Below, piece after piece: positions 24,428 to 60,588 of a stretch of DNA of 64,000 nt. Source of the stretch: Candidatus Latescibacterota bacterium (GTDB lineage Bacteria > Latescibacterota > UBA2968 > GCA-2709665); assembly GCA_965203805.1 (NCBI GenBank), contig OZ241917.1, forward strand, positions 3,264,001 through 3,328,000, written 5' to 3'. Each line of letters starts with the position of its first letter. The stretch's first letter is position 1. The notes under the pieces were generated by a model. That model did no database searches, had not been told where the DNA came from, and saw only the letters and a program-made list of their open reading frames with translations. Made by a program: the position numbers and the translations under genes.

Positions 24428-25572
24428 ATCGCATCCTCCTGACTATCCGATCCTCGGGGAAATTGCGCGAGGGCGCGCTGATTCGATGTACTTTTTCATA
24501 ACGCCTGTCGGCCGGTAATGGTTGCAGGGAACTGAAGAGAAGGAAGAAGGAAAAAGGAAGAAGGAAGAAGGAAGAAGGAAAACCGGTTGTGGTCCTCGTT
24601 CGTATTATCCATCATGTCCTGACAGGCCGCCTGCCGGCGGACAGACACCCGTTGGAACTAACCTCCTGGGGGACATTGACTTTACTCCTCCAACCAACTT
24701 TCATTTTCTCTTCGTCCTTTTTCTTGTACGCCCAAGAAAAAGGACCAAAAAGAACGGCGCCTGCCTGCCGAGCAGGCTTCGGCGCAGGCAGGCCGCTCGG
24801 CGCGGGGCCGGTTTTTCCGTGAACCACCTCAGTGGCGCAATTGGAATTTGGGTGCCCTGTCACCGAAACAGCCCTGCCGGAACTATGTTGCTGGACGGAT
24901 TTGCACGGAAAAACCCCCCTCTCCACAACCGTCCGCTTGATAGGAACTTACAAAGCACCGTACGGCGATGTTCCTGCGCGCTGGAGCGTTTACAGACCCA
25001 CCAACCTACCCCCTATCCCCCTTCCCGGGGGGAGGGGGAAACTGTGATCCCCTCGTGGTGTCCTGGTTTGCTCCCCCTCTCCCCCCGGGAGAGGGGGCCG
25101 GGGGGAGAGGTCTGAGGGGTTGGGGGTGAGGGCGCTCTTGATTCTGGCTGACGGCTGAGAGCCGACCGCTGATTGCTGCTCTAAGGAAGGGAGAAAGCGG
25201 GATCCTATCGCGTGGCGTTCGTTACCCTTTCCTTATAGGAGAGGGTCCCTGTCTGGCGGTGGTTTTTCGGCAGGCAGGGGGGAGAGGTCTGCGTAAATTC
25301 GGGGAGACGTAAGAGGGTAGACGGTAGATGAAGACATTTACCGCAGTGTTTCTACATAAACCGTGCCTGTTTTTTTACCGATATGGTAACGACTGGAAAA
25401 ACCATGGGGCACTGATATCATCTCCCGTCTCACGTCTACCCGCCTCCGCCGACCTACCCCCTATCGCGTGGCGTTCGTTACCCTTTCCTTATGGGGCTTA
25501 TATACTTAACTTGATATTTGTTTTAGGTTGTTCTACCAATCAACCCGTCAACATCACAGAGGAGAAGTTGAT

Positions 25573-25845
25573 ATGAAAAGGGACCTTGAATTGCGAGATT
25601 GGATCCTAACAGTGCTCGAAGACGCTGATGATCCATATTTGAGCCAGTATGTAATCATCGAAAGAGTAAATAAATCAACTAACGACGAATACACCGAAGA
25701 GCAAATCCTCCACCATATACTCCTCGCCTCTGATATGGGTCAGGTGAAAGTGAACAACGGCGAAATTCGCCTCACAAACGACGGCCATAATCATATTGAA
25801 AAGATGAGGGAACCATCACGAGCTAGTTTGCCGCCAGATCAATAG
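25573..25845 (+). CDS. Small DUF2513-like winged-helix protein
   Basis: GAGGAG RBS; MKRDLEL..IL..LE N-terminus and RLTNDGH..IE C-terminus resemble DUF2513. Confidence 0.6.
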   Translation: MKRDLELRDWILTVLEDADDPYLSQYVIIERVNKSTNDEYTEEQILHHILLASDMGQVKVNNGEIRLTNDGHNHIEKMREPSRASLPPDQ

Positions 25846-25970
25846 TAAAACGCTTGCCGATCACACAGAGAAAGACTTGCGCCATCTGAACATTAATGTC
25901 CAACTGGCGCGCGTTGTTCTTTGGGGCCAACAACCCTCCCGCAGACGCCCTAGAAACAAGAGAATACCAT

Positions 25971-26225
25971 ATGAGCTTCATGATCAGCTACGATATGGGA
26001 GACGATGCAAACTACGAAAAAATCATAACGCGTCTCAATCTCCTCAATGGAAAACCCATCCTCAAATCCCAATGGATCATAAATTCACCATTATCGATTG
26101 AGCAACTATTCGACATCCTCAGTCCTTCTATCGGCCGAAAGCACCACCTCCTAATCATGCCCATCGGAGATGCCCTTTCAAGATCCAAAGGCCGTCGCCT
26201 TCCACGATGCTGGCGCGAATTTTAG
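25971..26225 (+). CDS. Small Cas2/VapD-like ferredoxin-fold protein
   Basis: MSFMISYD...Y..I...L.....ILKSQWII pattern; no CRISPR array or cas1 nearby. Confidence 0.55.
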   Translation: MSFMISYDMGDDANYEKIITRLNLLNGKPILKSQWIINSPLSIEQLFDILSPSIGRKHHLLIMPIGDALSRSKGRRLPRCWREF

Positions 26226-26312
26226 GCTCCGAGAAACTACCTTCAAAGCATCCTTCTCCTCTTTCGACTCCGGCTCAAACGTCAAACTTCCATCTCGCCA
26301 GTAAACACGCAC
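26178..26312 (-). CDS. 44-aa small protein (MRVYWRDGSLTFEPESKEEKDALK...)
   Basis: AGGAGG 5 nt before GTG; open to TGA at 26178; below the ORF-track cutoff. Confidence 0.45.
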   Translation of the reverse strand: MRVYWRDGSLTFEPESKEEKDALKVVSRSLKFAPASWKATAFGS

Positions 26313-26598
26313 CCAAGCCTCCTATCTATTAATTATATAGTATTTCGATCCCTAGAAAACGACGGGACACCCATTGACCGGTCTGCAAAACCGCGAGGGT
26401 GTACCACCTCTCCCGCACAAAACCTATATCAAGTTAAGTATATAAGTCCTTTCCTTATAGGAGAGGGTCCCTGCCTGGCGGTGGTTTTTCGGCAGGCAGG
26501 GGGGAGAGGTCTGAGGGGTTGGGGGTGAGGGCGCTCTTGATTTTGGCTGACGGCTGATAGCTGACCGCTGATTGCTGCTCTACCGAACGTTTTCACAC

Positions 26599-38419: not shown

Positions 38420-39635
38420 GGGAAAGGGAAGAAGGAGAAAGAATTAAGAATGAAGAATGAAAACGGGATGGTCCTCGTGGGGATTATCTATCGCGTCCTG
38501 ACAGGCCGCCTGCCGGCGGACAAACACCCGTTGGAACTGCGTTCCGGGCGGTCCCAAACTTCAATTTTCTTTTTTCCTTCATGCCCTTTTTCTTGCTTCG
38601 CCCAAGAAAAAGGGCCAAAAAGAAGGGCGCCGCTCAAACGCCGCGGGGCTGCTTTTCCGCGAACCGCTTCAGTGGAGACAACGGGAGTCGTTGCCCTGAA
38701 ACCCTTACAGGCGTTCCCGGACGACGTTGCTGAACGGACTCGCGCGGAAAAGCCCCTTCACCACCACCGTTCGCTTGAGTGAACTGCGCGAGGTCTGATG
38801 CATTTGCGGTCTTGACGATTATGCGCTTCAGACCCCCACCCCCGCCAACCTACCCCCTAACCCCCTTCCTGTGAGGAAGGGGGAACGGCGATGGGTCGAT
38901 GGACTGGGCATGCAAACGTGCCGGCTGGCGAATTCCTGTCTATCAGTGTATCTATAGATGACCGGCACGCGATGCCTGTCCTTTCTCCCCCTCTCCCCCC
39001 GGGAGAGGGGGTTGGGGGGAGAGGTCTGCGTAAATTCGGTGAGACGTAAGAGGGTAGACGGTAGATGAAAACGTTACCACAGTGTTTTCACGCTAACCGT
39101 GCCTGTTTCTTTACCGACTATGGTAACGACGAGAAAGACCATAGGGCATTCATCTCACGTCTACCCTTTTCGAGACCCATTCCCTGACCCCCTTCCTGCG
39201 AGGAAGGGGGAAAGCGGGATCCTATCGCGTAGCGTTCGTTACCCTTTCCTTATAGGAGAGGGTCCCTGCCTGCCGGTGATTTTTCGGCAGGCAGGGGGAT
39301 AGGTCTGCGCATCCGCGAGGTCATGTCGCCAGGCCTTATCGTCGCCCCGTTGAAGCAGGTTGTCATCCCTCATCTCACGTCTCACGTCTTGCGTCTCCCC
39401 GCCAACCTACTGCCTACCCCCTTCCTATAAGGAAGGGGGACCCCCGGATCCTATCGCGTAGCGTTCGTTTCCCTTTCCTTATAGGAAAGGGTCCTGCCTG
39501 CCGGTGATTTTTCGGCAGGCAGGGGGATAGGTCTGCGCATCCGCGAGGTCATGTCGCCAGGCCTTATCGTCGCCCCGTTGAAGCAGGTTGTCATCCCTCA
39601 TCTCCCGTCTCACGTCTAACGTCTCCCCGCTCTTC
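38420..39635 (+). repeat. Mosaic array 4, between arc and dop
   Basis: Same modules; internal duplication ~39218-39400 / ~39447-39630. Confidence 0.9.
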
Positions 39636-51069: not shown

Positions 51070-52478
51070 AGTCAATTAAGAATTAAGAATGAAGAATGAA
51101 GAATTAAAACCTGAAGGCGGGGAGATGGGAAAGGGAGGGGGAGGAGGAAGGAAGAAGGAAAACCTGTCCCGTCTCACGTCTACCCCGCCGCCGACCTACC
51201 CCCTATCGCGTGGCGTTCGTTACCCTTTCCTTATAGGAGAGGGTCCCTGCCTGGCGGTGGTTTTTCGGCAGGCAGGGGGGAGAGGTCACGCATCAGGGAG
51301 GAGGTCTCGCCCGGCCATATCGTCGTCCCGTGGCCGCGAGTGATCATCTCCCGTCTTACGTCTTGCGTCTCCCCGCCTTTCAGACCTACCCCCTAACCCC
51401 CTTCCTGTGAGGAAGGGGGAACGGTGACGGGTCGATGGACCGGGCATGCAAACGTGCCGGCTGGCGAATTCCTGTCTATCAGTGTATCTATAAATGACCG
51501 GCACGCGAAGTCTGTCTCTTCTCCCCCTCTCCCCGCCTCCGCCGACCTACCCCCTATCGCGTGGCGTTCGTTACCCTTTCCTTATAGGAGAGGGTCCCTG
51601 CCTGGCGGTGGTTTTTCGGCAGGCAGGGGGGAGAGGTCTGCGCATCAGGGAGGAGGTCTCGCCCGGCCATATCGTCGTCCCGTGGCCGCGAGTGATCATC
51701 TCCCGTCTTACGTCTTGCGTCTCCCCGCCTTTCAGACCTACCCCCTATCCCCCTTCCTGTGAGGAAGGGGGAACGGTGACGGGTCGATGGACCGGGCATG
51801 CAGACGTGCCGGCTGGCGAATTCCTGTCTATCAGTGTATCTATAAATGACCGGCACGCGAAGTCTGTCTCTTCTCCCCCTCTCCCCGCCTCCGCCGACCT
51901 ACCCCCTAGCCCCCTTCCTGTGAGGAAGGGGGAACGGTGATGGGTCGATGGACCGGGCATGCAAACGTGCCGGCTGGCCAATTCCTTTCTATCAGAGTAT
52001 CTATAGATCACCGGCACGCGAAGTCTGTCTTTTCTCCCCCTCTCCCCGCCTCCGCCGACCTACCCCCTATCGCGTGGCGTTCGTTACCCTCTCCTCACAG
52101 GAGAGGGTCCCTGCCTAGCGGTGGTTTTTCGGCAGGCAGGGGGGAGAGGTCGCGCATCAGGGAGGAGGTCTCGCCCGGCCATATCGTCGTCCCGTTGACG
52201 CAGGTTGTCATCTCCCGTCTTACGTCTTGCGTCTCCCCGCTCTTCAGGCACTCACGGTATCTCACGTCTCACGTCTTGCGTCTCCCCGCCTTTCAGACCT
52301 ACCCCCTATCGCGTGGCGTTCGTTACCCTCTCCTCACAGGAGAGGGTCCCTGCCTGGCGGTGGTTTTTCGGCAGGCAGGGGGGAGAGGTCTGCGGGGAGG
52401 GGGGTTGGGTGGAGAGGGGTTGGGGGTGAGGGCGATTCTGCTTCAAGCTGATTGCTGAAAGCCGACAGCTGATCGCTG
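51070..52478 (+). repeat. Mosaic array 6
   Basis: Same modules; ~351-bp tandem unit starting at 51191 and 51542. Confidence 0.9.
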
Positions 52479-59214: not shown

Positions 59215-59874
59215 CTACTCCGATCCCGCCGTGGCCGGTTCGGTTGCGGAAGTTAATGCTTCCGGGCTTTTCCCGATCGGGCCTCCACCATAGAGAACCG
59301 TCGGAAGTTCGGGCACCTTTTCTTCTCTGTCTTTCGACAATCTCATCACAGTTTTTTGAGCGGTCTCGGTTATCTGCTCCAATTCATCGTCACTGCGAGC
59401 AATGCCCTGAACATCTCGGTGACTCTTCAAAAACAGAAGAATCGCGTTGTACATATACTCTTCGAAAAAGTTCTCCACACCTCGCTTGATAGCGTGATCG
59501 TCTTCTACAAGAGCAGCCAGATGGTTCAAATAGTGGAAAACTTGAAGTGTGTGAAACTTAACCATATCAACAGAGGTAGCTTCTTCGTTTTCGAGGGAGA
59601 TCCCACACTTGAGACCTAGTCCCGAAGCATACCGTGCAACATCTTCAAGAGTTAACTCTGAATTTCGACGGGATTCCAAAGCATCAATATGCTCCTCAGA
59701 AGTGCCAAGTTTCCTGGCCAGATCCCGCTGCGACATCTTTGCTCTGCACCTGACAGAATGCAAGAAAAACGCACAGCCGTGATCCCTGATTTCCTTCTCC
59801 AACTCGTCGCAAAGCTCAGGATCTTCTGTCGTGTCCCTCACCATTGCCATTACTGAGCTGTATCGCTTGGACAT
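59215..59874 (-). CDS. XRE-family HTH protein, HigA-like antitoxin with C-terminal extension
   Basis: MSQRDLARKLGTSEEHIDALE HTH; GGAGG RBS; follows the toxin-like gene. Confidence 0.7.
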   Translation of the reverse strand: MSKRYSSVMAMVRDTTEDPELCDELEKEIRDHGCAFFLHSVRCRAKMSQRDLARKLGTSEEHIDALESRRNSELTLEDVARYASGLGLKCGISLENEEATSVDMVKFHTLQVFHYLNHLAALVEDDHAIKRGVENFFEEYMYNAILLFLKSHRDVQGIARSDDELEQITETAQKTVMRLSKDREEKVPELPTVLYGGGPIGKSPEALTSATEPATAGSE

Positions 59875-59883
59875 GGCGCCTCC

Positions 59884-60279
59884 TCATTTCCTTTTCTCGT
59901 TCTGGGCCTCAAGTTTGTCAATATACCTTTTGCAATCCTTGAGATCCGTATCTTGTGTGTCCTTATAACCCATCGTTATGAAATACAAGGTTCGGGTCTC
60001 TACATGTGGATACACATAGAGACGAGCTTCCGGCAAATTTCCCCGACCTCTCTGATCAATTTCGAGCAGGCCCCGATCTCCACCACCACGAACCTTGCCC
60101 CGCTTGCGTACCTCCCCCAATTGTACACCATCGTTTAAAGCACTAAAAACTCTCGCAAAATTCATCATCACGGCTACCATCACATCTTTATCCTTCTTCT
60201 CAAACCACTTTTTCTTCCTCAAAAACAAATTCGATGGAAGTATCGTCCAATCTTCCGAATCCAACACTTCGCGCTCCAT
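59884..60279 (-). CDS. RelE/HigB-like toxin
   Basis: Basic 131 aa; GLLEI..RLYVY..G.KDTQDTDLK pattern; toxin-first order. Confidence 0.6.
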   Translation of the reverse strand: MEREVLDSEDWTILPSNLFLRKKKWFEKKDKDVMVAVMMNFARVFSALNDGVQLGEVRKRGKVRGGGDRGLLEIDQRGRGNLPEARLYVYPHVETRTLYFITMGYKDTQDTDLKDCKRYIDKLEAQNEKRK

Positions 60280-60563: not shown

Positions 60564-60588
60564 CTGTCAAATTGAGTATATAAGCCCG
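60564..60588. mobile_element. Solo IS1595-like terminal repeat
   Basis: CTGTCAAATTGAGTATATAAGCCCG, 20/25 identical to the cassette TIR; borders a low-GC segment. Confidence 0.55.

Follow-up and report, generated by a model that had tools for sequence, protein, structure and literature searches.

In this Latescibacterota genome, msrAB and a radical SAM gene are separated by an intergenic mosaic of repeats, and one hairpin module of this array is split by a stretch of low-GC DNA that carries two small genes. The locus raises the questions of what the insert is, from what kind of element it is derived, and whether the array played any part in receiving it. According to the best reading, to which we assign a probability of roughly 0.85, the insert is a mobile insertion cassette of the IS1595 family, a kind of element already known, that would have arisen by internal deletion of a transporter IS1595, been inserted by a DDE transposase at an AT-rich 8-mer, and been tolerated in a gene-free spacer. 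Positions given below refer to the window, i.e., the whole stretch of 64,000 nucleotides that was analysed.

Boundaries of the cassette and the interrupted module

A boundary check and a de novo scan place the whole element, to which no strand is assigned, at 25493..26450 (958 bp, 45.5% GC). It is flanked by two copies of TTCCTTAT, both given on the plus strand, at 25485-25492 and 26451-26458. The left copy consists of five bases of the left arm of the hairpin and its three-base loop; the right copy, together with the last three bases of the element, re-forms 8 of the 10 pairs of the hairpin. The left (25493..25517, plus strand) and right (26426..26450, minus strand) terminal inverted repeats agree at 23 of their 25 terminal bases, and a second computation gave arms of 31 nt with a 90% match. 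The right end closes with an A where nearly all ends of the family have a G, and the letters could be read equally well as a 9-bp duplication next to a right end that lacks one base, the norm of the family being 8 bp. When the genome (5.87 Mb) was scanned de novo for inverted ends accompanied by an exact 8-bp repeat, nine candidates were obtained, the cassette included; the end profile scored 43 and 39 bits at the two cassette ends and at most 22 bits in the reversed genome. The cassette is present in a single copy. The insert of about 958 bp with 25-bp inverted ends and an 8-bp duplication, as described in the first-pass annotation, is thus borne out.

The host array, delimited by repeat comparison and likewise without an assigned strand, occupies 24540..25492 on the left and 26451..26577 on the right of the cassette. 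Its hairpin module is 21 nt long and has 15 exact copies genome-wide; the left arm plus loop occurs 28 times, and just one of these 28 copies is interrupted, by the cassette. An empty module forms a stem of 10 pairs when folded, and it is on the loop that the insertion is centred. Empty alleles had been reported at about 25225, 39242 and 51223, and exact empty modules do start there (25225..25245, in the same array as the cassette, 39242..39262 and 51223..51243, all on the plus strand); a fourth exact match on this strand, absent from that report, lies at 51574..51594. In the relatives G012 and G001 the spacer flanked by the orthologous msrAB and radical SAM genes carries no insert and, in G001, is nearly free of array, and so the insertion is lineage-specific. 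A scan for split modules gave 42 joins, 34 of them listed with low-repeat interiors, and recovered the cassette. All 28 module copies are found within 225 kb (G000:C1:3245317-3470675), in blocks of a single orientation (13 plus, 13 minus and 2 plus), and the switch of orientation shows no coincidence with the GC-skew extreme. Array-type repeats in general pile up in the bin from 3.0 to 3.5 Mb, which holds 35 of their 80 kb.

Relationship with the IS1595 family

The IS1595 family is characterized by an 8-bp duplication and by a transposase composed of a zinc ribbon and a DDE domain (PMC8101967), and mobile insertion cassettes and transporter IS have been described (PMC3129680). Over its first 22 bases the left end of the cassette matches the ends of the autonomous L069 and L085 exactly, and it agrees at 21 of the 22 with those of L088; the three elements encode transposases with the domains PF12762 and PF12760. 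Within the cassette, a profile search gave no PF12762 match. The earlier assignment of the insert as a transposase-less IS1595-family derivative with passengers stands, given that elsewhere intact PF12762+PF12760 transposases lie between these ends. A dif/Xer-type site was also considered for the end and was dropped, since these ends bracket DDE transposases with duplications. The ends may be those of the ISNwi1-like subgroup.

The exact end pattern was found at 41 loci of the genome collection (36 distinct ones once double listings were removed), in hosts that include Alphaproteobacteria, Rhodobacteraceae, Arenicellales, Nitrospirales and Latescibacterota. Paired ends were present in 31 of the 36, and 25 of these 31 have a duplication matching at 7-8 of 8 positions. 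Six of the paired elements contain a full IS1595 transposase, 13 are MITEs (149 or 172 bp), nine carry only tnpB, one has a frameshifted methylase-like gene and two are of undecided content. Eleven copies of the 149-bp MITE, with fresh duplications, belong to one Arenicellales assembly (L073, L075, L077, L079, L090, L091, L096, L097, L100, L106 and L107). The host genus has two further passenger-only cassettes with these ends; one (L035:5876-6490) carries a single MtlR/HEPN-like gene and the other (L031:8319-10534) a methylase-HNH fragment plus further small genes. The pattern was not found in those genomes searched among 400 from the phylum of G061, and a metagenome scan for the end returned two matches, neither of them informative. 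The backbone of the transposase tree did not resolve, and no clade could be attributed to the end type of the cassette.

In the cassette's own genome there are five DDE_Tnp_IS1595 matches. Two of them correspond to intact transporter elements that have related ends and are flanked by 8-bp duplications (L002 and L001, with 16-17 and 13 of 22 bases in common with the cassette end, respectively), and the closest end, with 21 of 22 bases, belongs to a broken element that keeps a transposase fragment of 114 residues. In this broken element (L006:1701-5330) passengers replace the first two thirds of the transposase. Near it there is a 502-bp internally deleted IS element with an 8-bp duplication, which is presumably IS256-like.

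A solo IS1595-type end, detected with the end profile, is located in the window outside the arrays, at 60565..60588 on the minus strand; neither for this end nor for ten other solo ends was a partner found within up to 12 kb. It faces low-GC DNA that contains an HTH gene (59215-59874) and a frame of 131 residues (59884-60279), for which no family match was found and which we read, as an assumption, as a RelE/HigB-type partner. Three genomes of the collection, G005, G006 and G009, share an IS1595-type element of 383 bp (L141:2479-2861, L146:2738-3120 and L144:2480-2863) that is probably a single old fixed insertion, because the copies of G006 and G009 have the same imperfect duplication. Another locus (L149:4236-10318) holds three related ends in a nested or tandem arrangement, each of them flanked by one and the same 8-bp word.

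Passenger genes and a probable transposase relic

The first passenger gene (25573..25845, plus strand, preceded just upstream by AGGAG) encodes 90 residues. Its product gave a match to Pfam PF10711 with an E value of 3e-4, which is below the cut-off, a match to phrog_585 with 6e-5, and an Atlas value of 0.90 to DUF2513 clusters; the support for the assignment as DUF2513/YjcQ-like is weak or borderline throughout. The second passenger gene (25971..26225, plus strand) encodes a solo SinR/Cas2-like protein of 84 residues with a predicted Cas2 fold and a Tyr-Asp motif in strand 1, and has a full-length homologue at 55%. Both frames are intact, NCBIfam has no family for either product, and no sigma-70 promoter was detected inside the cassette on the strand of the passengers at the scan threshold.

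Between the two genes, and converging on the first, the minus strand at 25823..25927 probably holds a relic of the last 30 or so codons of an IS1595 transposase. The signal is weak (4.4 bits over positions 279-307 of the 312 of the transposase profile, the best of 300 shuffled sequences reaching 3.5 bits; tblastn E value of 2e-4), yet it lies at the expected place and on the expected strand. Among 60 relatives, only two homologues of passenger 2 were detected, both inside IS1595 elements, beside one end and upstream of and divergent from the transposase; they occupy the same position as in the cassette, with the transposase present. Passenger 1 had no match in these two relatives. In the autonomous L069 and L088 a passenger converges on the 3' end of the transposase gene. 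These results mark solo Cas2-like genes as recurrent passengers of IS1595 in the host genus.

Probable origin of the cassette by internal deletion, and its possible movement

From the relic, the position of passenger 2 and the layout of L069 and L088, we infer that the cassette is a transporter IS1595 from which most of the transposase has been cut out. The parent would have been organized as an end, a converging passenger, the transposase, a diverging Cas2-like passenger and the other end, and would have lost about nine tenths of the transposase gene by internal deletion. A DDE transposase would have placed either the cassette or its intact parent into an AT-rich 8-mer, producing the 8-bp duplication. 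The duplications of the family are AT-rich, as judged by inspection, which is consistent with a target choice driven by AT content; that the 8-mer used here was also the arm and loop of a hairpin repeat would be chance, and the gene-free spacer could tolerate the insertion.

The order of these events allows two versions. It may be that an intact transporter IS1595 was inserted at this site and lost its transposase in place, never having moved as a cassette; the insert would then be a relic unable to move, and any retention of it would be due to its passengers. The single copy in the genome, the relic that is still there, the altered terminal base of the right end, the 60 relatives without a close copy of the Cas2-like gene, and the many solo ends and broken copies of the genus all agree with this version. 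On the other hand, both passenger frames have remained intact, and the same end type also bounds the 149- and 172-bp MITEs and passenger-only cassettes; in other genomes such passenger-only and empty elements are multi-copy with fresh duplications, so that movement in trans would be real for the family. Since the cassette is present in one copy, deletion after insertion reads the same as movement as a cassette, and decay in place stands about even with movement, perhaps slightly short of it. As for its present state, the cassette would be immobile in this genome, given that the transposase of the element with the closest end is a fragment and that the terminal base of the right end is changed. 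Both versions fall within the reading as an internal-deletion derivative. The cassette itself illustrates cleanly, though in no unusual way, how IS1595 sheds its transposase and carries small genes.

Predicted fold and candidate function of passenger 2

The model of passenger 2 (pLDDT 86.7) shows a ferredoxin-like fold, predicted to be that of Cas2, and the top rows in both Foldseek (best E value 5.6e-3) and VIA are Cas2 proteins. Superposition on an E. coli Cas2 gave a Z score of 9.0 (rmsd of 2.6 over 73 residues), and on BPSL1038 a Z score of 7.5. Tyr7-Asp8 and Ser33 are invariant in nine aligned homologues; Asp8, located at the end of strand 1 and aligned with SSO8090, is the candidate catalytic residue. 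Passenger 2 does not qualify as a CRISPR-Cas2 proper: it gave no Pfam match, PF09827 included, and it is neighboured by msrAB and the radical SAM gene. Nuclease activity of a solo Cas2-like protein has a precedent in BPSL1038, a Cas2-like DNase that is independent of CRISPR (PMC10491678).

It could be speculated that the two passengers work together, as a Cas2/VapD-like nuclease and its small DNA-binding partner, and that a role of this module in addiction or phage defence would explain the persistence of the cassette. The predicted fold, the invariant residues and the precedent of BPSL1038 speak for this proposal; however, the transposase stood between the two genes in the inferred parent, the two relatives with the Cas2-like gene gave no match for passenger 1, Z scores near 8-9 are close to the level reached by common folds, and the SST motif of BPSL1038 is absent from passenger 2. 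We consider such a joint function unlikely.

Target choice and the repeat arrays

The first-pass annotation had also proposed that the arrays act as safe landing pads for mobile gene cassettes. On this view IS1595 cassettes would be steered into the modules, either by the transposase or by a host protein that binds the hairpins. Its attraction comes from the insertion being centred on the loop with the hairpin re-formed at the right junction, and from the existence of REP-targeting IS in the IS3, IS110, IS4, IS256 and IS5 families (PMC1525189). To evaluate target enrichment, the IS1595 sites of 15 genomes of the genus were compared with a baseline of random AT-rich 8-mers, 6.4% of which adjoin repeat modules. 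Two of 19 paired sites, one of them the cassette itself, lie beside repeats (p = 0.34), as does one of 15 solo ends, some of which may be orthologous; the pooled value is 3 of 34 (p = 0.37), i.e., no enrichment. These small numbers depend on a repeat library built from this genome only, which may miss lineage-specific repeats. Furthermore, the three orthologous 383-bp copies were counted once, the L130 pair was set by hand with its duplication unconfirmed, and transposase matches without recognisable ends were left out.

Within this genome, none of the five other IS1595 elements or ends that were located is in an array, and only one of the 28 modules is occupied. For the other IS of the genome (39 of 57 long repeats, kept by their end motif), 5 of 39 lie beside repeats against a whole-genome baseline of 3.8% (p = 0.016), which would favour steering into the arrays; nevertheless, this excess disappears against the 17.6% obtained for roughly intergenic positions. 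The REP-targeting IS reach ratios above 45%, as opposed to 2 of 17 for IS1016, a member of the IS1595 family (PMC1525189). Hence the idea of landing pads is not borne out, and a steering of cassettes into the modules seems very improbable. The arrays look like tolerated intergenic space rather than preferred targets, and the lack of support for arrays that exist to receive mobile DNA narrows what they may do.

TnpB-only relatives with the same ends

The larger value of this study may reside in a lead outside the window. Elements that carry only tnpB between the ends of the cassette are multi-copy in G061, G062 and G063, and in these three genomes searches for the IS1595 transposase family gave no matches or only partial ones. 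The loci analysed (L172, L176, L180, L183, L173, L177, L181, L184, L174, L178, L182, L185 and L204-L224) come from G061-G063, G523, G563 and G577; in the genome of the cassette no such TnpB was found with the query used. Most copies of group A matched all three RuvC motifs, and the patterns used missed some others. Other IS1595-type ends enclose more distant TnpB groups, in which clear sites are too few for a motif.

In the first set, with tnpB used to orient the copies, the triplet that precedes the left duplication is ATG in 9 of 12 cases and RYG in all 12; the corresponding values are 1/72 and 4/72 at ends of non-TnpB elements, and 0/12 on the far side. Three further genomes gave 13 related loci, eight with a clear duplication, and YG precedes it in all eight versus 9 of 72 control ends (p = 8e-7). 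Taken together, YG is found directly before the left duplication at 20 of 20 clear TnpB sites, against the same 9/72. Besides, a 6-base segment near the end of tnpB can pair with the last six bases of the element, fully in 26 of 32 copies, at five of six positions in five copies and at four in one. A single two-sided change was seen; this count leaves out two rows, and the segment is also coding. A pseudoknot between the 3' part of tnpB and the terminal bases is thus possible. RNAalifold on eight right ends of TnpB elements found two-sided changes in only 3 of 44 pairs, a weak signal.

The YG before the left duplication is likely a TAM signature. Together with the terminal pairing, it suggests a guide RNA that would end in the inverted repeat, with the TAM just outside the duplication. 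It is also possible that YG reflects a host-specific preference of the transposase; autonomous IS1595 with other end variants show the motif in 1 of 16 cases in four hosts. If the transposase has no such preference, homing or restoration driven by TnpB would filter the surviving cut-and-paste insertions. A broader proposal, to which we give even odds, is that of a modular IS1595 carrier, of which the cassette would be one member, shared by several unrelated lineages of marine symbionts, with a transposase, an empty MITE, a Cas2-like, MtlR/HEPN-like or methylase gene, or TnpB as its cargo; the guide of TnpB would start at the duplication, the TAM would be approximately ATG, and homing or restoration would filter the insertions. 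If this is true, the TAM could be read straight from genomes, and these relatives would supply compact nucleases for which a short TAM is predicted. If their insertions are filtered by a TAM to which the transposase is indifferent, they would also make it possible to test directly whether a cut-and-paste transposon profits from an RNA-guided nuclease, a matter that a 2026 review treats as open (PMC13565253).

Comparison with known systems

Published work already describes TnpB associated with DDE transposases as well as solo TnpB flanked by matching ends (PMC10691335, PMC13565253). As in the DDE-1 to DDE-6 branches of PMC10691335, the relatives described here, none of which is present in the window, have tnpB alone between inverted ends and the 3' end of the gene next to the end of the element. 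IS1595 was not found as a TnpB partner in the literature searched: the main text of PMC10691335, in the part available, does not include it, with one mention in the supplement's list of family models, and the additional files on transposon ends may hold it; the available part of PMC13565253 names ISL2, IS630 and IS1031. In Fanzors the 5' duplication is inside the TAM (PMC13565253), whereas in these relatives the motif is just outside the duplication.

Passenger 2 shares the Cas2 fold, as predicted, and the aspartate of strand 1 with the CRISPR-independent Cas2/VapD-like nucleases BPSL1038, VapD and SSO8090. It differs from them in that the identity is 12-21% and that it is carried as an IS passenger, its nuclease activity being putative; BPSL1038 has, in addition, the SST motif that passenger 2 lacks. 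With the REP/BIME-targeting IS (IS1397, ISKpn1, IS621, ISPpu9 and ISRm22) the cassette shares the presence of an IS-type element inside an extragenic palindrome; nevertheless, those IS insert into REPs in most or all of their copies (PMC1525189), and the site and module counts given above separate the cassette from them. The closest counterparts are the mobile insertion cassettes and transporter IS of the IS1595 family, which have in common with it inverted ends of about 25 bp starting with GG, an 8-bp duplication, passenger genes and no intact transposase; the autonomous relatives of the cassette likewise encode the zinc ribbon and the DDE domain (PMC8101967, PMC3129680). Compared with the known members of this class, the cassette is new in its sequence and in its solo Cas2-like and DUF2513-like passengers.
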